Positions 14,934 through 24,542 of a stretch of 64,000 nt of DNA are shown in pieces (the stretch's first letter is position 1; every line of letters starts with the position of its first letter). The stretch comes from a virus. Where the stretch lies: IMG/VR virus record IMGVR_UViG_3300032401_000002, positions 32,001 to 96,000 of that record; one strand, written 5' to 3'. The position numbers were made by a program, and so were the translations under genes. The notes beneath the pieces are model-generated. The model was not told the DNA's origin, did not search any database, and was given only the letters and a program-made list of their open reading frames with translations.

Positions 14934-16808
14934 GTGACCTCTAGTACCTTGATCGGCTCTGATAGCCGACAAATCCTTCAAGACTTGGTGCATTATCGCA
15001 CCTACGCAGGAACCCAGCAGAACGGTAAGAAAGAGACTCGCGAGCAAGTCATCGACAGAGTCCGGGACATGCACCAGACGATGTTCCCGTGGTTCTCGGA
15101 CGAAATCGCTGATGTCTTCCAGGAGGTTTACGCAGGACGGACAGTTCCTTCTATGCGTACCATGCAATTCGGTGGGATGCCCATCTTCAGAAGCAACGCG
15201 CGAGGGTACAACTGTGCCTTTGCTGCGCTGACCTCTTGGAAGGACTTCGCCGACATGTTCTGGCTCCTGATGAACGGAGTCGGCACTGGCTATTCCGTCC
15301 AGCAGCATCACATCGACCAGCTACCCGTGGTTCACGCATTCGAGGGGCAGACATTCACGGTGCCCGACTCGAAGGAGGGTTGGGCTGATGGAATCGTCGC
15401 TCTGCTCGCGAACCCCCAGGTCAAGATCATCACCGACCTGATTCGGCCCAAGGGTGCCCCGATCTCATCTGGTGGTACAGCCTCAGGCCCTGAGTCGTTG
15501 TCGGAGATGTACGAGAAAGTGAGAGCGATTCTCATTAGTGCTGTGGGCCGCAAGCTCACGTCACTGGAGTGCTTTGATGTCATGTGTCACATCGCAGACG
15601 TGGTTGTAGTCGGAGGCGTTCGACGCGCGGCAACAATTGCTCTCTTCGACGCTGACGACAACTCTATGCTCTCGGCCAAGCAAGGATCATGGTGGGAAGA
15701 CAACGCCCAGCGCATGAGGGCTAACATCTCAGCCGTCCTGGTTCGGAGCGATCCTAACTTTGAGACCAAGCTCCGTCACATCCTGGATATGTGCTTCAAG
15801 TCCAACTGCGGGGAGCCGGGCGTGTCGTTGACAAATGACAGGGAGTACGGATTTAACCCCTGCCATGAGATCAGCCTGCGTGATGGCCAGATGTGCAACT
15901 TGACTGAAGTCAACGCGGCGGCTTGCTCTACCGAAGCAGAGTTCTTCGACGCGGTGTCTTCGGCAGCAGCCATTGGCACGCTTCAGGCTGCCTACACAAA
16001 CTTCGAGTACCTTCAGCCGAAGTGGAAGAAGAACTGCGAGCTTGACGCTCTTCTCGGAGTTAGCATCACCGGCCAAGCTGCCGCGTGGGATCTGTTGACC
16101 CCTGAGGTCTTGGCGCGTGGAGCCGAAGAAGCCGCTCGTGTCAATCGCGAATGGGCACAGAAGCTGGGTATCAACTACGCCGCGCGGGTGACCACGACGA
16201 AGCCTTCTGGTTCTACTTCTGCGTGGTGGGGAACGACCAGTGGTATTCATGCCGCTCACTCCCCATACTACCTCCGTCGAGTTCGCGTTGACCGCAAGGA
16301 TGCATTCGGTCAGCACCTGATCGAGGCGTACGGCGAAGGCGAGGCCGAGTCGGGTTCCTTCGTGGAGTCGGACGCTTACGCGCCTGAGAACATCATCGTG
16401 ACGGTGCCCGTCCACATGAACGGGGCGATCTATCGCGAAGGCGAGACAGCTATCGCACTGATGGAGCGCTCGAAGCACATCTTCGAGAATTGGATCATGC
16501 CCGGCCACAGCACTGGCCCGAATCCTCACAACGTTAGCTTGACCGTGAGCTACCGACCCGAAGAGCAGGCAGAGATCACCGAGTGGATGGTAGACAACTC
16601 CGACTCATGGGCTGGCATCAGTCTCCTGCCCTACGACGGTGGCAACTATACCCAAGCTCCATTCGAAGAGATCAGCGAGCACGAGTTCTTCCAGTGGCTC
16701 AAGAAGGTACCAAGCGTTGTGGACTTTGGAGTCATCGACTTCACAGCACAAGTGGATGAGCGGTTGGGCGAGCTTGCATGCTTCGGCGGACAGTGCGAGG
16801 TCATCTGA
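14934..16808 (+). CDS. nrdJ: class II (adenosylcobalamin-dependent) ribonucleoside-triphosphate reductase
   Basis: YNC, GGVRRAATI, NPCHEI, CNLTE, KPSGS, C-terminal CFGGQCE. Confidence 0.95.
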   Translation: MTSSTLIGSDSRQILQDLVHYRTYAGTQQNGKKETREQVIDRVRDMHQTMFPWFSDEIADVFQEVYAGRTVPSMRTMQFGGMPIFRSNARGYNCAFAALTSWKDFADMFWLLMNGVGTGYSVQQHHIDQLPVVHAFEGQTFTVPDSKEGWADGIVALLANPQVKIITDLIRPKGAPISSGGTASGPESLSEMYEKVRAILISAVGRKLTSLECFDVMCHIADVVVVGGVRRAATIALFDADDNSMLSAKQGSWWEDNAQRMRANISAVLVRSDPNFETKLRHILDMCFKSNCGEPGVSLTNDREYGFNPCHEISLRDGQMCNLTEVNAAACSTEAEFFDAVSSAAAIGTLQAAYTNFEYLQPKWKKNCELDALLGVSITGQAAAWDLLTPEVLARGAEEAARVNREWAQKLGINYAARVTTTKPSGSTSAWWGTTSGIHAAHSPYYLRRVRVDRKDAFGQHLIEAYGEGEAESGSFVESDAYAPENIIVTVPVHMNGAIYREGETAIALMERSKHIFENWIMPGHSTGPNPHNVSLTVSYRPEEQAEITEWMVDNSDSWAGISLLPYDGGNYTQAPFEEISEHEFFQWLKKVPSVVDFGVIDFTAQVDERLGELACFGGQCEVI

Positions 16809-17095
16809 TGAACCTCAAGCAAGAGATCCGTCACGGCGAGGTCATCATCGACTTCTATGCTGAGTGGTGTGGCCCGTGCCACGCCGTGGCCCCTGTCCTT
16901 GACAAGGTCAGCCTTGACACGGGCATCAAGATCGTCAAGGTAGACATTGACGCCGAGCGCGAGATCAGCGAGACGTTCGGGGTTGTGTCCATCCCGACGA
17001 TGGTCTACATGATCAATGGAGACGAACAGGCTCGCGTCACTGGCGCTCTCCCTAAGGACAAGTTGATGGCTGCTTTGGGGATCATCGGCACGTAG
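16808..17095 (+). CDS. trxA: thioredoxin
   Basis: DFYAEWCGPC, SIPT; TGATG coupling to nrdJ. Confidence 0.95.
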   Translation: MNLKQEIRHGEVIIDFYAEWCGPCHAVAPVLDKVSLDTGIKIVKVDIDAEREISETFGVVSIPTMVYMINGDEQARVTGALPKDKLMAALGIIGT

Positions 17096-17097
17096 GG

Positions 17098-17127
17098 TTG
17101 ACTGCCTTGTGGGTCGTGTGCTACAGT
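17098..17127 (+). promoter_or_regulatory. sigma70-type promoter of the RNA island
   Basis: TTGACT-N18-TACAGT with extended -10 TG. Confidence 0.7.
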
Positions 17128-17273: not shown

Positions 17274-17483
17274 TTGGGGGCAAGCAGTTACTGAAGGTAT
17301 ACCGATGGTGTAGTTTGCCATCTGATCGCCTGGCTCTTCGGAGCAGGGAGATACATAGTTCGGGTAGCCCATCTGGCGCAGCATTGCTACGGGGATCGCA
17401 ACCGAGGCAGATGCCGAACGAAGTAGAGTTTCGAGACTGGGGGTCGATCCCCAAGGTTGGCCCCCAGTCTCAAAGTTTATCGT

Positions 17484-17555
17484 CGCGGATTGGAGCAGTG
17501 GTAGCTCGCTAGGCTCATAACCTAGAGGTCGTTGGTTCGAATCCATCATCCGCTA
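17484..17555 (+). tRNA. tRNA-Met(CAT), initiator-like
   Basis: Cloverleaf, C1 mismatch, fMet-type D arm, loop CTCATAA. Confidence 0.9.
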
Positions 17556-17920
17556 TGAGGCCACCGCCCTAATACCCACGGGTAGTCGGGTTGTGCTGGC
17601 CTCTCTAGCTCAGGTGTATAACAGGACGGCTTGCCGTCTGAGGCCACCTGGGAACGGGTACGGGGTGGAGGCTGGTCGCCGTCTGCTTGTGGTGTAGCGT
17701 CGTCTTCGGACGGGGTGTAATCCGCAGGTTTGATATAGAGCAGTCCCACTCCGTCCCACCTATCCCTTTCTAGCTCACACAAGACTGTCGCGAAAGCGGC
17801 ACCACACGCGCATCTATGCGCGGATTGAGCAGGGTGGCACACAACCTTGACCAAAAGAGTGTGTCTGCGCATGAGATCGCAGGAACCATCTCACGGGCAT
17901 GGCCCGTTACAGCCATACTA

Positions 17921-17994
17921 CAGCGTGTAGCTCAGTCTGGTAGAGTGTCCGTCTGGGGGACGGAGAGTCGAGGGTTCGAGTCCCTCCACGCTGA
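17921..17994 (+). tRNA. tRNA-Pro(GGG)
   Basis: Cloverleaf, loop CTGGGGG. Confidence 0.93.
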
Positions 17995-18002
17995 TAGCAT
18001 GA

Positions 18003-18078
18003 CTGGATGTAGCTCAGTTTGGTTCAGAGTACCCGATTCGGATTCGGGGAGTCGGAGGTTCGAATCCTCCCATCCAGA
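18003..18078 (+). tRNA. tRNA-Pro(CGG)
   Basis: Cloverleaf, loop TTCGGAT. Confidence 0.92.
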
Positions 18079-18082
18079 TAGA

Positions 18083-18157
18083 CAGGTCGTAGCTCAGTCT
18101 GGTAAGAGTGCCCGCCTTGGACGCGGGGAGTCGGTGGTTCGAATCCACCCGGCCTGA
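18083..18157 (+). tRNA. tRNA-Pro(TGG)
   Basis: Cloverleaf, loop CTTGGAC. Confidence 0.93.
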
Positions 18158-18391
18158 TACCTCCTATCCTGAGGGGGAACCCCGCGTTGACCGTGGGATC
18201 GTAAGCGCGTCTCGGCGCTCGTGGAAACTACCCGGACATAGGCGGGCAAGTCTGCGAGAACAACCTGGGGCGAAGCGCGTACCCTGCGCGAGCGGTTAAC
18301 AGAGCACAAGGTTTACATGGTTCGGCTCGTCGTGATGGTCTGTCGCGCTCCTTGTGCCGCGCGATGGATGGCAGGCCATCCTGAGCAACTT

Positions 18392-18755
18392 GGGCATGCC
18401 CGGTTTCGACAGTCGTGTATGGGCAATGAGATGCAGCGGGTCGCGGCCTTATCGCGCCAAGCCTTGGACAGGGCAACCACATGCAGACGACAACATCGTC
18501 TCCACGGACTACATCGACAACGGCATCGCCGCTCTCGAAGACTTCCTCGCGGAAGCGTCCCTCGTCACGGTCTAGCGAGTACCAATAGACCGCTGTGTCG
18601 CCCAGCTTAGGCGACTGACTGCTCGGAAAGTGACGAGTTGACCCGGAGAGGGAAAGTCCTCTGCCCTGGTGGAGGGCACACAGCCCCCAAAGAAGCTGCT
18701 AGAAGTCTTGTTGTAACCGCTCGGTTGGACGAGGGTTCGACTCCCTCCATGTCCA
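18392..18755 (+). ncRNA. ssrA: tmRNA
   Basis: Acceptor GGGCATG/CATGTCC-A with G3.U70, 5' GGTTTCGAC, 3' GGACGAGGGTTCGACTCCCTC T arm, tag ORF 18483-18575 starting GCA. Confidence 0.93.
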
Positions 18756-18901
18756 CTGCAAGAATCAAGAAATCCCCTAGGGGCGTCGTTGTCTGCTACC
18801 AGTTCCGCAGGAGCAGCCAGGTGCGGAACACCTGCGAGGCGTATGAGGGAGAGTCACGAGAGTGACACGGAGATGTCTTTCCCTAGGGGCATCTCTCACA
18901 C

Positions 18902-18970
18902 GCGGAGTAGGCTAAGGCAGCCAAGTGGTCTCCAACACCACAGGACAGGGTTCGATTCCTTGACGCCGCG
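18902..18970 (+). tRNA. tRNA-Trp(CCA), atypical core
   Basis: GTGGT-CTCCAAC-ACCAC arm, T arm, G73; acceptor mismatch and odd connector lengths. Confidence 0.75.
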
Positions 18971-19055
18971 CTTCATCACTGAAAGGTTCGAGGGTTGACT
19001 GAAGGTACGGTTCGTCTGCTCACGGCAGGCAGCTAGGCTTCAGCAGTGATGGCAT

Positions 19056-19129
19056 GCCCCGTTAGTCTAACGGTTCAGGATACCACCCTCTCACGGTGGG
19101 GATTGCGGGTTCGAATCCCGCACGGGGTA
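19056..19129 (+). tRNA. tRNA-Glu(CTC)
   Basis: Cloverleaf, loop CTCTCAC. Confidence 0.92.
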
Positions 19130-19170
19130 CTGCCTTCGGGCACTGGGCCACGCAGCATCAGTGGCATCAC

Positions 19171-19242
19171 TGGAGGGTAGCTCAATGGTAGAGTGTCCCG
19201 CTGTTAACGGGGTGGTTCTGGGTTCGAGTCCCAGCCTTCCAG
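19171..19242 (+). tRNA. tRNA-Asn(GTT)
   Basis: Cloverleaf, loop CTGTTAA. Confidence 0.93.
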
Positions 19243-19254
19243 CTTGCAACACAT

Positions 19255-19328
19255 GGCCTGTTCGTCTAGCGGTCTAGGATACCGGGCTTTCAACTCGGAC
19301 GACAAGGGTTCGAATCCCTTACGGGCTA
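19255..19328 (+). tRNA. tRNA-Glu(TTC)
   Basis: Cloverleaf, loop CTTTCAA. Confidence 0.92.
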
Positions 19329-19427
19329 CTGACGGTGCCACGAGCCGTCGTAAGCAACTCGTGGTCGTGAACAGAGAGGGACGACGGGAAACCGTCCTCT
19401 GACACGGATGAGAAAGCTCCCACACCT

Positions 19428-19500
19428 TAGAGGGTGGTCTAATCGGCAGGACGCCAGGCTCTGACCCTGGAGATTGAAGGTTCGATCCCTTCCCCTCTAG
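19428..19500 (+). tRNA. tRNA-Gln(CTG)
   Basis: Cloverleaf, loop CTCTGAC. Confidence 0.92.
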
Positions 19501-19505
19501 CTCTC

Positions 19506-19577
19506 AACAGGGTAGACTAACGGTAGGTTCCCTGGCCTTGAACCAGGTCGGTCTAGGTTCGAATCCTAGCCCTGTTA
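19506..19577 (+). tRNA. tRNA-Gln(TTG)
   Basis: Cloverleaf, loop CCTTGAA (C33). Confidence 0.82.
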
Positions 19578-19662
19578 CTGCAACAAGATTGCCACGCCCC
19601 TATGCCGGGGCCAATCTAGGCGGGTATTGCGCCCGTGTGTCCAGGTGAAAGCCCTGGCTTAT

Positions 19663-19737
19663 GCCCCTCTAGCCCAACTGGCCAGAGGCAACGGCTTTAA
19701 AGACCGTTCAGTGAAGGTTCGAATCCTTCGGGGGGCA
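19663..19737 (+). tRNA. tRNA-Leu(TAA), short variable arm
   Basis: Actinobacterial-type Leu body, loop TTTAAAG, C31.A39 mismatch. Confidence 0.82.
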
Positions 19738-20121
19738 CTGAAGGACACGCACGTCTGCGCGAAGGGGTTGCTCCCGGAGAGCTTAGGGCGTCCGTGGTGG
19801 TGTGGCCGAGTAGGACTGGATTCCTCTCCACGAGGGGTACAGTTGCGAAGGCACAACCGGCGAAAGTGACGGGCAACCGGCACGAGTAGTAGCCGCGACA
19901 AGGGTGTTGCGTTCGGCCAGAGCCAATCGGTGAGGTCGGTCTCAGTCAGCACTCGTCTGGGAGTAGTTACCTGGGCAGACGGTGGCGCTTGACAGCGCAG
20001 GGAAGGTACGACCGAAACTGTAGCCATTGACATGGACAAGCAGTGGATAGGTCGTCGGAGGGTTGCTGAATCCCTTCCACCACTCCTTCTATCTCTTTCT
20101 CCCCGCACAGTAACTAGCACT

Positions 20122-20301
20122 ATGGCGGGAATCATGATCAGGTGCTCAGGCACGAAGGACGGGGTACATTGTGCCCGGTACACTCGTTTCATTGGAGCGC
20201 CGAATGTTGACTGGACGTGCGAAGGGTGCCTTGCTGGTCGAGCACCATTCGAGCACAAGTCGAAGGTTGTCCAGCAGCAGATGAAGCACAAGAAGAAGTA
20301 G
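20122..20301 (+). CDS. small zinc-finger-like basic protein inside the RNA island
   Basis: MAGIMIRC(8)C...CEGC...KHKKK, 59 aa from ATG 20122. Confidence 0.6.
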   Translation: MAGIMIRCSGTKDGVHCARYTRFIGAPNVDWTCEGCLAGRAPFEHKSKVVQQQMKHKKK

Positions 20302-20304
20302 CTT

Positions 20305-20378
20305 ACCTCGCTAGCTCAAACGGATAGAGCAAGGGTCTTTTAAACCCAAGGTTCTGGGATCGTACCCCAGGCGAGGTA
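20305..20378 (+). tRNA. tRNA-Lys(TTT)
   Basis: Cloverleaf, loop CTTTTAA, T loop ATCGTAC. Confidence 0.87.
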
Positions 20379-20541
20379 CTCTTGAACGACTATTCGGCTC
20401 CTCTGGACGCTGCGCGGCTTCACCACCGCTCGACTCCATGTGGTTCATGGAGGGTCAAGGTTGTTGACGGTAGGCACGCTCGCGACGTAGCCGAAAGACA
20501 GCTTACCGAAGGGCAAGACCGCACTGGTCGTTCAAGTTATT

Positions 20542-20615
20542 GGATCGCTAGCTCAGTTAGGCAGAGCAGGGGACTCTTAATCCCAAGGTCGTCGGTTCGA
20601 TCCCGACGCGATCCA
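20542..20615 (+). tRNA. tRNA-Lys(CTT)
   Basis: Cloverleaf, loop CTCTTAA. Confidence 0.94.
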
Positions 20616-20635
20616 CTGGCCGCAAGGCCGACAGG

Positions 20636-20717
20636 GCCGGAAGGGCGAGGGTTCGAATCCCTCCCGGACAAGGAGCTTCGGCTCACCGTCCGGTAGCTCA
20701 GTGGGAGAGCGTCCGGC
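20636..20717 (+). ncRNA. circularly permuted tRNA-like RNA (YrlA-like topology)
   Basis: Order: anticodon 3' strand, T arm, acceptor 3', UUCG hairpin, acceptor 5', D arm, anticodon 5' strand. Confidence 0.8.
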
Positions 20718-20722
20718 GTTAT

Positions 20723-20805
20723 GCTCTGGTGGTGGAATTGGTATACACACTAGCCTTAGAAGCTAGCGCCCACAGGGATTGAGGGTTCGACTCCCTCCTA
20801 GAGCA
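20723..20805 (+). tRNA. tRNA-Leu(TAG)
   Basis: Long variable arm, loop CTTAGAA. Confidence 0.93.
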
Positions 20806-20857
20806 CTAGGTAGACGTACCGAGACCCAGCGGATGGGTCAACCTAAAGTCCGCACCC

Positions 20858-20941
20858 GCGCTCGTGATGGAATGGGTAGACATGCTAGGTTGAGAGCCTA
20901 GTGGCCGCGAGGTCGTGCAGGTTCAAGTCCTGCCGTGCGCA
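20858..20941 (+). tRNA. tRNA-Leu(GAG)
   Basis: Long variable arm, loop TTGAGAG. Confidence 0.9.
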
Positions 20942-20942
20942 T

Positions 20943-21012
20943 AGGATGGTAGCCCAACAGAGAGGCAGCCCGACAAGGGAAGAGTTGCCGGAATCGAGTC
21001 CGGCCCATCCGA
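20943..21012 (+). ncRNA. tRNA-like element without a canonical anticodon arm
   Basis: GGATGG/CCATCC acceptor, TAGCCCAA..AGAGGC D arm, GCCGG-AATCGAGT-CCGGC T arm. Confidence 0.6.
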
Positions 21013-21016
21013 CCCT

Positions 21017-21090
21017 GGTACGCTAGCTCAATTGGTAGTAGCGTTCGGTTGAAGCCCGAAAGGTTCTCGGTTCAAGTCCGAGGCGTACCA
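21017..21090 (+). tRNA. tRNA-Phe(GAA)
   Basis: Cloverleaf, loop TTGAAGC. Confidence 0.9.
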
Positions 21091-21100
21091 CTGTAGTATT

Positions 21101-21175
21101 GCCCTCTTAGCCCAATCCGGCAGAGGCACCAGCCTCAAACCCTGGTCAGTGGAGGTTCGACTCCTCCAGAGGGCA
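21101..21175 (+). tRNA. tRNA-Leu(CAA), short variable arm
   Basis: Loop CTCAAAC, C31.C39 mismatch. Confidence 0.85.
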
Positions 21176-21189
21176 TAGTACCACCACAT

Positions 21190-21264
21190 GCGGATCGTAG
21201 CTCAATCGGTCAGAGTCGTGGCTTGTGAAGCCATCGGTTGCGGGTTCGAATCCCGTCGATCCGC
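21190..21264 (+). tRNA. tRNA-His(GTG)
   Basis: G-1:C73 pair, loop TTGTGAA. Confidence 0.92.
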
Positions 21265-21271
21265 CTTGTAC

Positions 21272-21344
21272 GTGCGAATGGCTCAGTAGGTAGAGCATCT
21301 GGTTGCCAATCAGAAGGTCGCGGGTTCGAACCCCGCTTCGCACA
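21272..21344 (+). tRNA. tRNA-Gly(GCC)
   Basis: Cloverleaf, loop TTGCCAA, A73. Confidence 0.92.
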
Positions 21345-21465
21345 TCGGTAGCTGGTTGGCGAGTCCTTCCCATGCAGCCTGGGCGACCTGAGTCTCGGCC
21401 GAGATGAGGGAACCTTGTGAATCGGGTCGTTGGCCAACTTGTGCAAACCATCCAGGTGCCGTCCT

Positions 21466-21539
21466 GCTCCATAAGCTCAGTCTGGCAGAGCGCTGGTCTT
21501 GTAAATCAGGGGTTGTCGGTTCGATCCCGACATGGAGCT
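21466..21539 (+). tRNA. tRNA-Thr(TGT)
   Basis: Cloverleaf, loop CTTGTAA. Confidence 0.93.
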
Positions 21540-21542
21540 TAC

Positions 21543-21615
21543 GACCCGGTAACTCAGTGGACAGAGTCACGGTTTCCTAAACCGTTGGTCACAGGTTCGA
21601 CTCCTGTCCGGGTCA
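21543..21615 (+). tRNA. tRNA-Arg(CCT)
   Basis: Cloverleaf, loop TTCCTAA, A20. Confidence 0.93.
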
Positions 21616-21620
21616 TGTTT

Positions 21621-21693
21621 GGCCTGTTAGCTCAGTGGACAGAGCGTGGGGCTTCTATCCCCAGCGTCGGAGGTTCGATCCCTCCACGGGCCA
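21621..21693 (+). tRNA. tRNA-Arg(TCT)
   Basis: Cloverleaf, loop CTTCTAT. Confidence 0.93.
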
Positions 21694-21834
21694 CTTTACA
21701 CAAGACGCTCGAAGCGTCCTTGTACTAGATGATGCCCTTCGGGGCCGGGCGGGGCGATCCATTGGCCTGGGAACAGAACGAGGTCGAACACGACGGGTGA
21801 CAGTTGAACGGCGGGACGCCCGGTGCCCGCACAT

Positions 21835-21906
21835 GCGAAGGTAACTCAACGGTAGAGTCTCAGTTTTCCAAACTGGTGGTTGCGGGTTCGATTCCCGTCC
21901 TTCGCT
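21835..21906 (+). tRNA. tRNA-Gly(TCC)
   Basis: Cloverleaf, loop TTTCCAA. Confidence 0.92.
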
Positions 21907-21951
21907 CTCGGTGGGTGAGTCCAGGTTCGCCCTGTAAGTAGCCCACCGCTA

Positions 21952-22024
21952 CGCTGTGTAGCTCAGTTGGTAGAGCAATCCCCTCATAAGGGAGAGGTCG
22001 GAGGATCGTAGCCTCCCATAGCGA
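21952..22024 (+). tRNA. tRNA-Met(CAT), elongator
   Basis: Cloverleaf, loop CTCATAA, T loop ATCGTAG; Ile2 identity not excluded. Confidence 0.85.
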
Positions 22025-22130
22025 CTTCGGTCAGTGCTTAGGCACAGGACAACGAACCTCCCAAGACCCGGTACGACTCCACAACATGGGTGGAGCAACG
22101 TTCTGATCAAAAGCCGGGTTGGCCGAACAC

Positions 22131-22201
22131 GCTCCTATAGCTCATGTGGAAGAGTCATCCTTCGTACGGATGTGGTCGCAGTTCGACTCTGCGTGGGAGC
22201 T
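22131..22201 (+). tRNA. tRNA-Thr(CGT)
   Basis: Cloverleaf, loop TTCGTAC. Confidence 0.85.
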
Positions 22202-22204
22202 TGC

Positions 22205-22276
<72 letters not shown>

Positions 22277-22385
22277 TGCAACAAGACTCTCCTCGATGCG
22301 TGAGGGGCTGCTCACCAGCCCGCAAAGCGCAAACACGGGAGATAGACCGGGCGAACGGGAGTGAGCTTCGCCTGGTCGAACTTTC

Positions 22386-22458
22386 GGCCTGTTAGCTCAG
22401 CGGACAGAGCGAGTGGCTTCGAACCACTAGGTCGGGGGATCGTACCCCTCACAGGCCA
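22386..22458 (+). tRNA. tRNA-Arg(TCG)
   Basis: Cloverleaf, loop CTTCGAA, T loop ATCGTAC. Confidence 0.9.
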
Positions 22459-22468
22459 TGTAGTACCT

Positions 22469-22540
22469 GGTTTCGTACGAATCTGGTGAAACGGTTCCCC
22501 TGTCACGGGAATGAGGCGGGTTCGATTCCCGTCGAGACCG
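22469..22540 (+). tRNA. tRNA-Asp(GTC)
   Basis: TTCCC-CTGTCAC-GGGAA arm, G73, weak D stem. Confidence 0.82.
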
Positions 22541-22691
22541 CTATGGGCTGTAGAGTCCTGGGGTGTTGGAGAATCCCCGAAGCTGCGAGGTAGACCAACC
22601 TCCTCGCGGCCTCTAGTCGCGCTCCTTGAAAGCTGGCCCGCAAGGCCGGTGGAAGTATCGGGCAAAACCGACGCGACTCATTCAGGGCCTG

Positions 22692-22763
22692 GGGCGGTTA
22701 GCTCAGTGGGAGAGCAGGTTCTTTACACGTACAAGGTCGGGGGTTCGAATCCCTCACCGCCCA
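22692..22763 (+). tRNA. tRNA-Val(TAC)
   Basis: Canonical D/T arms, loop TTTACAC, mismatched anticodon stem. Confidence 0.87.
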
Positions 22764-22771
22764 TACCAGGA

Positions 22772-22877
22772 TTCAGCGCTAGTGTGCCTGCCTGGGGCCG
22801 AACCACCCGTATGCCGGTGGGGGAATCAGCACCCGAGGGTACTCGGAGTTCAGGTGCGAACCCTGAGCGCTATTGAA
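22772..22877 (+). ncRNA. tRNA-like RNA with D-loop insertion and a tetraloop in place of the anticodon
   Basis: AGCGC/GCGCT acceptor, GTGT/GCAC D stem, CCGAG-GGTA-CTCGG, TCAGG-TGCGAAC-CCTGA T arm. Confidence 0.65.
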
Positions 22878-22879
22878 CG

Positions 22880-22953
22880 TGACCCGTAGCTCAGTGGTAA
22901 GAAGCGGGAGGCTTATATCCTCTTGGTCGTGGGTTCGATTCCCACCGGGTCAA
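22880..22953 (+). tRNA. tRNA-Ile(TAT)
   Basis: Cloverleaf, loop CTTATAT. Confidence 0.88.
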
Positions 22954-22954
22954 T

Positions 22955-23190
22955 CACGAACGGAAAGACAAGCGCGGTCGCAAGATCGAGGAAAGTCAGG
23001 CCACCTGAACCAGGGGAGACCAATGCAACCTGGGGAAACGTGACGAGGACGTGGGAGAAGGTCGCAAGGTCTTCGGCTTACCACCTAATCGGCGGGGTGC
23101 AACCTCAAGCGGACGGTCATCTCAGACCGGACAGGTAGAGGGCACAGATAGATGCTTGTCCTAGACAGAAGCCTGCTTACGAAGTTCGTG
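22955..23190 (+). ncRNA. rnpB: miniature RNase P RNA
   Basis: P1 CACGAAC/GTTCGTG, P2 GACAAGC/GCTTGTC, GAGGAAAGTC, 3' ACAGAAGCCTGCTTA with compensated P4, AGATAGATG. Confidence 0.88.
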
Positions 23191-23244
23191 TACACATGAG
23201 AGTGGTTTGGCGGTCGTGACCCATACCTCACGCGCTCTCACCTT

Positions 23245-23317
23245 TGGCTCGTAGCTCAGTTGGGAGAGCACTTGATTGACATTCAAGAGGTCGTCGGATC
23301 GAGGCCGACCGAGCCAA
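23245..23317 (+). tRNA. tRNA-Val(GAC)
   Basis: Cloverleaf, loop TTGACAT, T loop ATCGAGG. Confidence 0.88.
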
Positions 23318-23388
23318 CTTGCCCACCCGTCGCGTTGTAGGGGAGTGGCATAAGCCCCCGTCTGTTGCAACGCCAGCCGGGGGAACTC

Positions 23389-23462
23389 GCGGTTGTAGCT
23401 CAGTGGAATAGAGTATCAGGTTGCGAACCTGAGGGTCGCTGGTTCGAATCCAGCCAATCGCA
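23389..23462 (+). tRNA. tRNA-Arg(GCG)
   Basis: Cloverleaf, TCAGG-TTGCGAA-CCTGA. Confidence 0.9.
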
Positions 23463-23653
23463 CTCAGCACTACAAGTTTGGGGACGGCCCCGTCAGGCCC
23501 CTTCCCAACGCTACCTCTGGCGAGATAGGGGTCGTGTCAACTCGACCACGAAAGTGTCGGGGCGCTGCGAATCACAGAGCGTGTTATCTGTGGTCGTCTG
23601 CCGGGAGACTACCCCGTGTCAAACCAGGTGTAGCTGACGGCTCGCCTGGCCTA

Positions 23654-23727
23654 GGACTTGTAGCTCAGTGGTATAGAGCATCCGTCTGATACGCGGAGGG
23701 TCGGTGGTTCGACTCCACCCAAGTCCA
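23654..23727 (+). tRNA. tRNA-Ile(GAT)
   Basis: Cloverleaf, loop CTGATAC. Confidence 0.93.
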
Positions 23728-23849
23728 TGAGAAGTAGCTCAGATGCCATCTCGCATGTGTCTCCCGGCCAGAGCCGGATAGGGTGCATGCGGGGCAGAGC
23801 GGGCCGATGATCACGGTCGCGACGAGGGGCTGGCAATCCTCCTTCTCTA
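23728..23849 (+). ncRNA. tRNA-like RNA with a 56-nt structured D loop
   Basis: GAGAAG/CTTCTC acceptor, TA-GCTC...GAGC D stem, GGCCG-ATGATCA-CGGTC, variant T arm. Confidence 0.65.
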
Positions 23850-23852
23850 CAT

Positions 23853-23923
23853 AGTGATGTGACCGAGAGGCCAGGTCGTTGGCTGCAACCCTTCGCACAG
23901 CGGTTCGAATCCGCTCATCACTT
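23853..23923 (+). tRNA. tRNA-Cys(GCA)
   Basis: Loop CTGCAAC, U73, mismatched anticodon stem. Confidence 0.83.
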
Positions 23924-23927
23924 CTTC

Positions 23928-24001
23928 GGGCGGCTAGCTCAATTTGGGAGAGCAACGCGCTTGCACCGCGTAGGTTGGGGGTTCAAGTCCCCCGCTGTCC
24001 A
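23928..24001 (+). tRNA. tRNA-Ala(TGC)
   Basis: G3.U70, loop CTTGCAC. Confidence 0.93.
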
Positions 24002-24003
24002 CT

Positions 24004-24103
24004 ACCGAAAGAACGGGTTCGAATCCCGGCCGCGCGACCCAAGCTAGAGGGGTATACACCAAAGGCGAAGGTCTGATCAGTAGTGTAAGGGCAGCACGTC
24101 GGT
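24004..24103 (+). ncRNA. second circularly permuted tRNA-like RNA
   Basis: ACCGA...CGGG-TTCGAAT-CCCG...TAGTGTAAGGGCAGCAC-G-TCGGT; ACCGA pairs with TCGGT. Confidence 0.62.
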
Positions 24104-24110
24104 TTAACTT

Positions 24111-24186
24111 GGGTTGTGGGGCTGCATGGGGTGGCCATCTCGCTTGCACCGAGAACAACAGCAGGGTTCGATTCCCTGACGATCCA
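24111..24186 (+). tRNA. tRNA-Ala(TGC), atypical second copy
   Basis: G3.U70, loop CTTGCAC; G8G9, unusual D loop, 7-nt variable loop. Confidence 0.78.
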
Positions 24187-24278
24187 CTAGGAAGCAGAAG
24201 CACGCAGATGACTCGTAGGTGTTCTAGAAACCAGGGCCGTAACGCAACCGTGCCCCATCAGCGCTGCATCCTACTCGT

Positions 24279-24362
24279 GGTAGGTTACTCAAGTGGTTAC
24301 GAGAGCGGGTTGCTAACCCGTCAAGTCGCAAGGCTTCCTGGGTTCGAATCCCAGACCTACCG
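24279..24362 (+). tRNA. tRNA-Ser(GCT)
   Basis: Long variable arm, loop TTGCTAA. Confidence 0.92.
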
Positions 24363-24367
24363 TACCA

Positions 24368-24451
24368 GGAAGGTCGCATTGGCGTGCTTATGCGGTTTGA
24401 ACCCGTTGATGGGGCTAATCCCCCGTGGGAGTTCGACTCTCCCACCTTCCT
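24368..24451 (+). tRNA. tRNA-Ser(TGA), atypical D arm
   Basis: Long variable arm, loop TTTGAAC, T arm GGGAG-TTCGACT-CTCCC. Confidence 0.75.
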
Positions 24452-24455
24452 CTTT

Positions 24456-24536
24456 GCTGGCGCTTGCTCAATGGTGAGGGCTACTGGCTGTAACCCAGAA
24501 GACACGTCTATGGGGGTTCGACTCCTCCCGCCAGCA
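24456..24536 (+). tRNA. tRNA-Tyr(GTA)
   Basis: Loop CTGTAAC, variable-arm hairpin, A73. Confidence 0.8.
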
Positions 24537-24542
24537 CTCCGC

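Follow-up and report, generated by a model that had tools for sequence, protein, structure and literature searches.

A miniaturised bacterial-type RNase P RNA gene in the tRNA array of a large phage

RNase P RNA is regarded as a cellular housekeeping gene; to our knowledge, only one other ribozyme is likewise shared by all cellular life. A 236-nt locus lying in the tRNA array of a phage raises the question of whether a virus can hold a maintained gene for this RNA and, if so, what the RNA would do for its carrier. The window analysed here is a stretch of 64,000 nt (bases 32001-96000) of an IMG/VR record of 150,167 bp with a completeness rating of 93%, and all coordinates given below are window positions unless another record is named. 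The record is of sediment origin and represents an uncultured phage of ~150 kb. Its genes encode a tail sheath, a baseplate wedge, and minor tail and virion proteins, together with DnaE, DnaB, ribonucleotide reductase and an SNF2 helicase; from this structural and replication gene content, the carrier is a large contractile-tailed phage.

Genomic setting and identification

The RNase P RNA gene is located inside an island (17483-24537) of 39 tRNA genes and a tmRNA gene, all on a single strand, in which 12 of the inter-tRNA gaps are of 10 nt or less. It occupies 22955-23190 on the plus strand (236 nt from P1 to P1; Rfam envelope 22954-23195), and the boundaries given by the first-pass annotation of this DNA are exactly those of the outer pair of P1. 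The upstream tRNA-Ile(UAU) (22880-22953, +) has its discriminator at 22953, 1 nt before P1, and the downstream tRNA-Val(GAC) (23245-23318, +) starts 54 nt past P1, a neighbour that is also present in the related phage contig L004. Promoter-like and terminator-like sites were not found near the RNA gene within the island; a single promoter-like site is present at 17098-17127, and the number of such sites is not above chance. The 54-nt spacer between the RNA and tRNA-Val (23191-23244, +) contains a hairpin (-15.2 kcal/mol, z = -1.4) that has no T run and is thus unlike a terminator. The locus was also considered as an attP or integration site, a reading that was rejected because the deletions are internal and leave a full-length gene, unlike a terminal fragment, and because there is no integrase nearby.

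The island and its border contain further features. The tmRNA gene (18392-18758, +) exceeds the cut-off of its Rfam model (RF00023, 56.7 bits) and is not listed by ARAGORN in the window, while ARAGORN does list tmRNAs in the related loci L004 and L013. A sub-threshold match to the Y RNA-like YrlA RNA (RF02553; 33.7 bits against a cut-off of 69, E 1.9e-4) is located at 20627-20739 (+), overlapping the start of tRNA-Leu(UAG). Immediately upstream of the island, a 105-aa ORF (16778-17095, +) with a WCGPC motif is thioredoxin-like.

The Rfam model of bacterial type A RNase P RNA (RF00010, RNaseP_bact_a) matches the locus end to end (model positions 1-367) at 22954-23195, with a score of 49.4 bits and E-values of 1.8e-14 (local), 3.7e-13 (7.4-kb tRNA island) and 1.8e-15 (150-kb genome). 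RF00010 scores best among the Rfam models, and no other reaches a significant E-value. The match is not due to chance. Type A, type B and type T models had all been named in the first-pass annotation as a check on its proposal; only the first of these responded, and neither the type B model (RF00011) nor the type T model (RF02357) matched anywhere in the phage genome at E <= 10.

The score falls short of the RF00010 gathering cut-off of 100 bits, solely because P18 and most of the specificity domain (S-domain) are missing. A standard Rfam annotation run therefore misses the gene, and the search at curated thresholds reported nothing at 22955-23190. A blastn search of the RNA against 50,697 GenBank phage records likewise gave no match. 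Thermodynamic folding is uninformative by itself (z = -1.2 for the whole region and -0.5 for the S-domain remnant); the sub-fold at 23100-23143, which corresponds to the P15/P17-like part, has z = -3.7.

Architecture of the RNA

The catalytic domain can be followed element by element along the plus strand. P1 (22955-22961 with 23184-23190) has 7 bp, and a P1-like terminal helix of differing sequence is formed by all 17 members of the family described below, a count that is partly circular, as the P1 ends of the relatives were picked by pairing. P2 (22967-22974 with 23153-23160) keeps its pairing in the relatives, where the mean helix score is 7.0 with a sequence's own partner and 4.2 with the 3' strands of other sequences. 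The P3 hairpin (22975-22979 with 22984-22988) consists of 5 bp closed by a GCAA tetraloop and is present in all relatives with 3-11 bp. P1, P2 and P3 are thus formed throughout the family by unrelated sequences. CR-I (J3/4), GAGGAAAGUC, is located at 22988-22997 by the RF00010 alignment and overlaps the 5' strand of P4 (22993-23001 with 23171-23178), which carries the bulged U22996. The whole segment comprising CR-I and the P4 5' strand with its bulged U (22988-23001) is invariant in 17 of 17 sequences.

P5 (23002-23005 with 23096-23099) covaries, its strands being CACC/GGUG in the window and CAUC/GAUG in the close relative L070, with five other pair sets across the family. The RF00010 alignment then places the J5/15 CAA at 23100-23102, P15 at 23103-23106 with 23138-23141, a P17-like hairpin at 23114-23118 with 23125-23129, and the GGU of L15 at 23134-23136. 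Pairing of P15 is seen in 16 of 16 sequences, each position showing 3-4 pair types. The CR-IV joiner (23144-23154), which is aligned to the model and kept in the family, runs directly into the P2 3' strand, and CR-V (23165-23179), consisting of J2/4 and the P4 3' strand (ACAGAA, four bases, GCUUA), is invariant except at its covarying positions. Every catalytic landmark listed in the first-pass annotation, P1, P2, P3 with GCAA and P4 among them, was found where it had been placed. P16 is mostly lost and vestigial, and P18 is missing, with 24 model positions against no residues in the RF00010 alignment. Judged from sequence, the predicted catalytic and substrate-binding residues are retained in CR-I with its bulged U, CR-IV, CR-V, the J5/15 CAA and the L15 GGU.

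The S-domain is represented by a remnant of ~90 nt (23006-23095) between the two strands of P5, and ~140 S-domain positions of RF00010 are unalignable and skipped as local ends. Hairpin H1 (23010-23014 with 23029-23033) covaries among the window and the relatives L070 and L002, in which three of its five pairs differ and yet remain paired. It is directly followed by the conserved GGAAACGUG (23034-23042). Helix H3 (23051-23054 with 23081-23084) also covaries among these three sequences, its second pair being U:A, A:U or C:G. It encloses a conserved GAG, a P12-like hairpin (23057-23074) whose sequence and length vary, and, on the 3' side, a bulge that reads UUA or UCA. An H3-type module recurs in L066 and L068, whose S-domains are otherwise unlike. 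The H3 arm looks like P10/P11/P12, with the bulge located where type A has a conserved AA, a likeness judged by eye against the RF00010 consensus and the structure line from a bacterial example. In the same comparison with the RF00010 consensus, the CR-II (J11/12) and CR-III (J12/13) motifs, which contact the D and T loops of tRNA (PMC4919922), are absent by eye, and P13 and P14 are not recognisable in the RNA.

The S-domain had been described in the first-pass annotation as strongly reduced to two T-loop-like motifs. The reduction is confirmed; the remnant is not limited to two loop motifs, as it spans ~90 nt with two helices backed by covariation and a P10/P11/P12-like arm. The T-loop assignment of UGCAA and GGAAAC is not supported. 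UGCAA sits in the H1 loop and is partly conserved, GGAAAC is kept in two relatives and altered in a third, and nothing shows that either is a T-loop.

Other pairings within the remnant were considered and set aside. GGAAACGUG is not the 5' strand of P10/P11, since a compensatory change shows 23081-84 to pair with 23051-54. Variants that delete 23070-73 and leave the other side unchanged contradict the minimum-energy fold, in which 23016-22 pairs with 23068-74. The H1 loop (23016-19) could form a P6-like pseudoknot with the P17 loop (23120-23) in the window and L070 and not in L002; it is not claimed, because four base pairs between two loops are within chance. A short helix of CGA (~23044-46) with UCG (23089-91) is conserved without covariation and is therefore not claimed either.

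Relatives, natural variants and selection on the fold

Relatives were sought in IMG/VR with a pattern of CR-I, 140-170 bases and the start of CR-V. About half of the 32 loci retrieved are chance matches in genes, and the remainder are clear small RNase P RNAs. Extra relatives came from one metagenome scan and further motif scans, and the resulting family set comprises 17 distinct sequences of 207-281 nt. Scanning for the motifs of three subfamilies returned mostly chance matches in coding DNA; RNase P features are missing from about half of loci L002-L033, from nearly all of L034-L065 and L071-L096, and from L097, a contig of a Dehalococcoidia MAG. The search through the neighbouring SNF2 helicase in IMG/VR yielded no confirmed relative. 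By DnaE, the nearest cultured phages are actinophages (~30% identity), and RF00010 had no match in the five cultured actinophages searched (Rhodococcus phage E3, Gordonia phages SCentae, RedWattleHog and Skog, and Saccharomonospora phage PIS 136).

About two thirds of the family members are located among same-strand tRNA genes, and 0-14 nt separate the upstream tRNA from P1 at 7 of the 18 distinct family loci. The RNA is most closely related to L070, on a 2-kb contig with 17 tRNAs, and to L002/L004. L004 is an 89.5-kb phage contig in which the order of the tRNA and tmRNA genes mirrors that of the window, and its copy of the RNA also lies just before tRNA-Val(GAC), a syntenic position occupied by a diverged sequence.

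Several members depart from the common arrangement. In L007 (7826-8017, +) the strand pairing with the P2 3' strand is located after CR-V and not before P3, and no P1 is evident, which suggests a rewired, circularly permuted topology. The smallest member, L014 (679-885, -; 207 nt), has P16 and P17 wholly deleted, and its P15 closes a plain 11-nt loop with the GGU still inside. A P18-like hairpin is kept in L015, L027, L005 and L018, which are not beside tRNAs in the fetched loci. L015 (G005, 343 kb) and L019 (G003, 203 kb) are classed as proviruses by IMG/VR, so that bacterial contigs may account for some of the 'phage' copies.

Covariation was taken over 16-17 relatives and scored solely at positions fixed by invariant motifs, which avoids alignment freedom. 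The four variable pairs of P4 are 98.5% paired, with 3 and 4 pair types at two variable positions, and the first three pairs of both P5 and P15 are 100% paired, with up to 3 and with 3-4 pair types, respectively. For each of the three helices these values were reached in none of 5000 partner shuffles, a control that ignores relatedness, the pair types nonetheless coming from clearly separate lineages.

The stretch itself is present in at least 16 sediment metagenome runs. Variants from two DNA runs and two RNA-library runs were aligned to it, and the stretches without cover in the RNA runs X19 and X22 were left out of the evidence. These near-identical variants from other sediment samples contain three compensatory double changes, each of which restores a pair. 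One, in H3, couples 23052 T>A to 23083 A>T (runs X22 and X16); the other two lie in the P17-like hairpin and couple 23117 T>C to 23126 A>G and 23115 G>A to 23128 C>T. In X22, deletions and substitutions at 23058-23076 convert the 18-nt hairpin into a GCC-UUCG-GGC mini-hairpin, in a reconstruction that takes each listed place as the first omitted base. The core (22954-23051) is unchanged in the X22 and X16 variants, and in the X15 contig a single base of J1/2, at 22964, is missing. X22 is represented by a 263-nt contig of a sediment metatranscriptome library, spanning 22954-23171; it gives a weak hint of expression, as its source may be contaminating DNA.

Judged from the covariation and the compensatory changes, the fold is under selection. 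This bears on the idea that the locus is a functionless, decaying fragment of a host rnpB gene acquired by the phage, which would suit both the score below the Rfam cut-off and the ~130 nt that are missing relative to a normal type A RNA. Such an origin is most improbable: the deletions are clean losses of whole structural elements that leave each remaining helix intact, the pairing has been kept by compensatory change, the position is maintained in a diverged phage, and such forms occur in many independent phage lineages. It is close to certain that the phage holds a maintained RNase P RNA gene. The central proposal of the first-pass annotation, a phage-borne miniaturised RNase P RNA of bacterial type, is borne out by the covariance-model hit, the covariation of P4, P5 and P15 across the 17 relatives, the compensatory changes in the variants and the phage context.

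Putative function and place among known RNase P RNAs

The function that we consider probable is that of a selectively maintained mini type A RNase P RNA, the putative catalytic subunit of an enzyme that would be completed by host RnpA and would mature the phage's own tRNAs. This is the simplest reading of a gene that keeps the active-site and substrate residues, stands among its presumed substrates and has no phage protein subunit to accompany it. No match to RnpA (Pfam PF00825, Ribonuclease_P) was found in the phage or in five other carrier records, and we infer that the RNA may use host RnpA or no protein, as had been conjectured at the outset, since either would fit the missing gene.

The RNA would be transcribed in the array, together with the 39 tRNAs and the tmRNA. 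Its 5' end would be freed by the 3' cut of tRNA-Ile just past the discriminator, and its 3' end by the 5' cut of tRNA-Val, followed by trimming to P1. The product is predicted, with the support of the data on the fold, to form a complete catalytic domain (P1-P5, P15, a short P17 and the three conserved regions of the C-domain) carrying an S-domain stub. It would then bind host RnpA, a step that is proposed because the phage is without an RnpA of its own, and remove the 5' leaders of the phage pre-tRNAs and pre-tmRNA. Many of the pre-tRNA substrates have leaders of only 3-10 nt. The likely benefit would be extra RNase P capacity, independent of host transcription, for ~40 simultaneous substrates.

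Counting against this host-RnpA reading, the elements with which type A RNAs read the tRNA elbow (CR-II, CR-III, P13 and P14) are unrecognisable and P18 is missing; in laboratory constructs, the loss of S-domain elbow elements or of P18 lowers affinity and makes the fold less stable. The L15 GGU pairs with the 3'-CCA of tRNA, and this target, too, is absent from the phage pre-tRNAs until a CCA enzyme acts: the 3'-CCA is encoded in none of the 39 tRNA genes (17483-24537), nearly all of which continue with T. A CCA-adding enzyme is encoded ~16 kb upstream of the window start, where a CCA-adding type PolyA_pol domain (PF01743, 82.6 bits; G000:C1:15844-16230) is part of a 1066-aa open frame. With regard to the missing S-domain, the E. 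coli C-domain alone still cleaves pre-tRNA, less efficiently (PMC5839562).

The first-pass annotation had also suggested that the array processed by the RNA may include tRNAs with non-standard elbows. The T arms are ordinary in most of the 39 tRNAs, with GAUCG replacing GUUCG in four, and this idea is therefore at best marginal. The four GAUCG tRNAs are Lys-UUU (20305-20379), Met-CAU (21952-22025), Arg-UCG (22386-22458) and Val-GAC (23245-23318); the motif, at the start of the T loop, looks like an A at position 54, and their Rfam scores are otherwise normal.

In type A RNAs, RnpA contacts P2/P3, CR-IV, CR-V and P15. The phage RNA keeps these parts and has largely lost the substrate-reading S-domain, and the phage has no RnpA gene, as would also be expected of a decoy or competitor, that is, a poor enzyme that binds host RnpA and thereby either deprives host tRNA maturation of the protein or directs it elsewhere. 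A comparable role has been put forward for the RNase P-like RNA of camelpox virus (PMC3001073), so that the notion has a viral precedent. A decoy role is nevertheless very unlikely here: a decoy would have no use for the active-site residues, the bulged U, the CAA of J5/15 or the GGU of L15, all of which show little or no variation among 17 diverged relatives, and blocking RNase P would harm a phage with 39 tRNAs of its own.

Bacterial-type P RNAs require protein in vivo, which makes it unlikely that the RNA is an active ribozyme working alone, or with an unrecognised phage protein, in place of host RnpA. The regions contacted by RnpA are moreover conserved, and no ORF for a small basic protein was found in or beside the tRNA island, where the thioredoxin is the only credible small ORF. 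Bacterial P RNAs are, however, active alone in vitro at high salt, RnpA is absent from six phage records, and many large ORFs of the genome have no family assignment. C-domain constructs are likewise active alone in vitro at high salt (PMC5839562). Host RnpA as the partner of a catalytic phage RNA remains the preferred reading.

Relative to bacterial type A RNAs (E. coli M1 RNA, encoded by rnpB; RF00010), the phage RNA shares P1-P5, P15, CR-I, CR-IV and CR-V as well as the bulged U, the CAA and the GGU. It is 236 nt long, whereas the bacterial examples fetched are of ~360-380 nt, and it differs in having no P18, a vestigial P16 and an S-domain of ~90 nt with no recognisable P13, P14, CR-II or CR-III. 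It is also phage-encoded within a tRNA array, is unaccompanied by an rnpA gene and scores below the gathering cut-off. Type T (type P) RNase P RNAs, found in Pyrobaculum and its relatives (RF02357), have ~200 nt, with a catalytic domain and nearly no specificity domain (PMC4919922), and are thus likewise naturally shortened RNAs that keep the catalytic domain. By contrast, they are archaeal, chromosomal and associated with archaeal proteins, while the phage RNA is bacterial in sequence and includes an S-domain stub. Engineered 'mini' bacterial P RNAs reduced to the C-domain (Eco CP RPR) are similar in that a type A C-domain without its S-domain cleaves pre-tRNA (PMC5839562). These are laboratory constructs of reduced efficiency, whereas the phage RNA is natural and appears to have been shaped by selection.

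An RNase P-like RNA was described earlier from camelpox virus and related orthopoxviruses (PMC3001073). It is eukaryote-like, belongs to animal viruses and has no link to viral tRNA genes, unlike the bacterial-type phage RNA in its tRNA array. In HeLa cells, the poxvirus RNA lowered endogenous pre-tRNA processing activity by only 20%, and it has been discussed as a possible decoy (PMC3001073). A full-text literature search for phage or viral RNase P RNAs returned no phage case and the poxvirus RNA as the sole viral one, and Rfam 15 contains no dedicated family for phage RNase P RNA. Phage miniature RNase P RNAs apparently constitute an unpublished class.

A broader proposal can be advanced tentatively, with rather less than even confidence. 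Streamlined RNase P ribozymes might be widespread in large tRNA-rich phages and make up a class not yet described, in which the short S-domain would be adaptive by relaxing elbow recognition for packed or odd precursors, and in which host RnpA would be taken over so that the phage controls tRNA maturation. If this is true, no viral RNase P ribozyme would have been known before them, and no natural one of bacterial type would be smaller. As standard Rfam thresholds miss such genes, phage annotation pipelines do not report them. The RNA raises the question of how substrates are chosen in vivo with almost no specificity domain, and whether this is achieved through the takeover of host RnpA. For structural and mechanistic studies of RNase P, it would provide a naturally occurring minimal ribozyme of bacterial type that selection has shaped, and a phage-borne, half-size version with a whole catalytic core would extend the range of viral translation genes, which includes tRNAs, tmRNA and the CCA enzyme, to a catalytic RNA.
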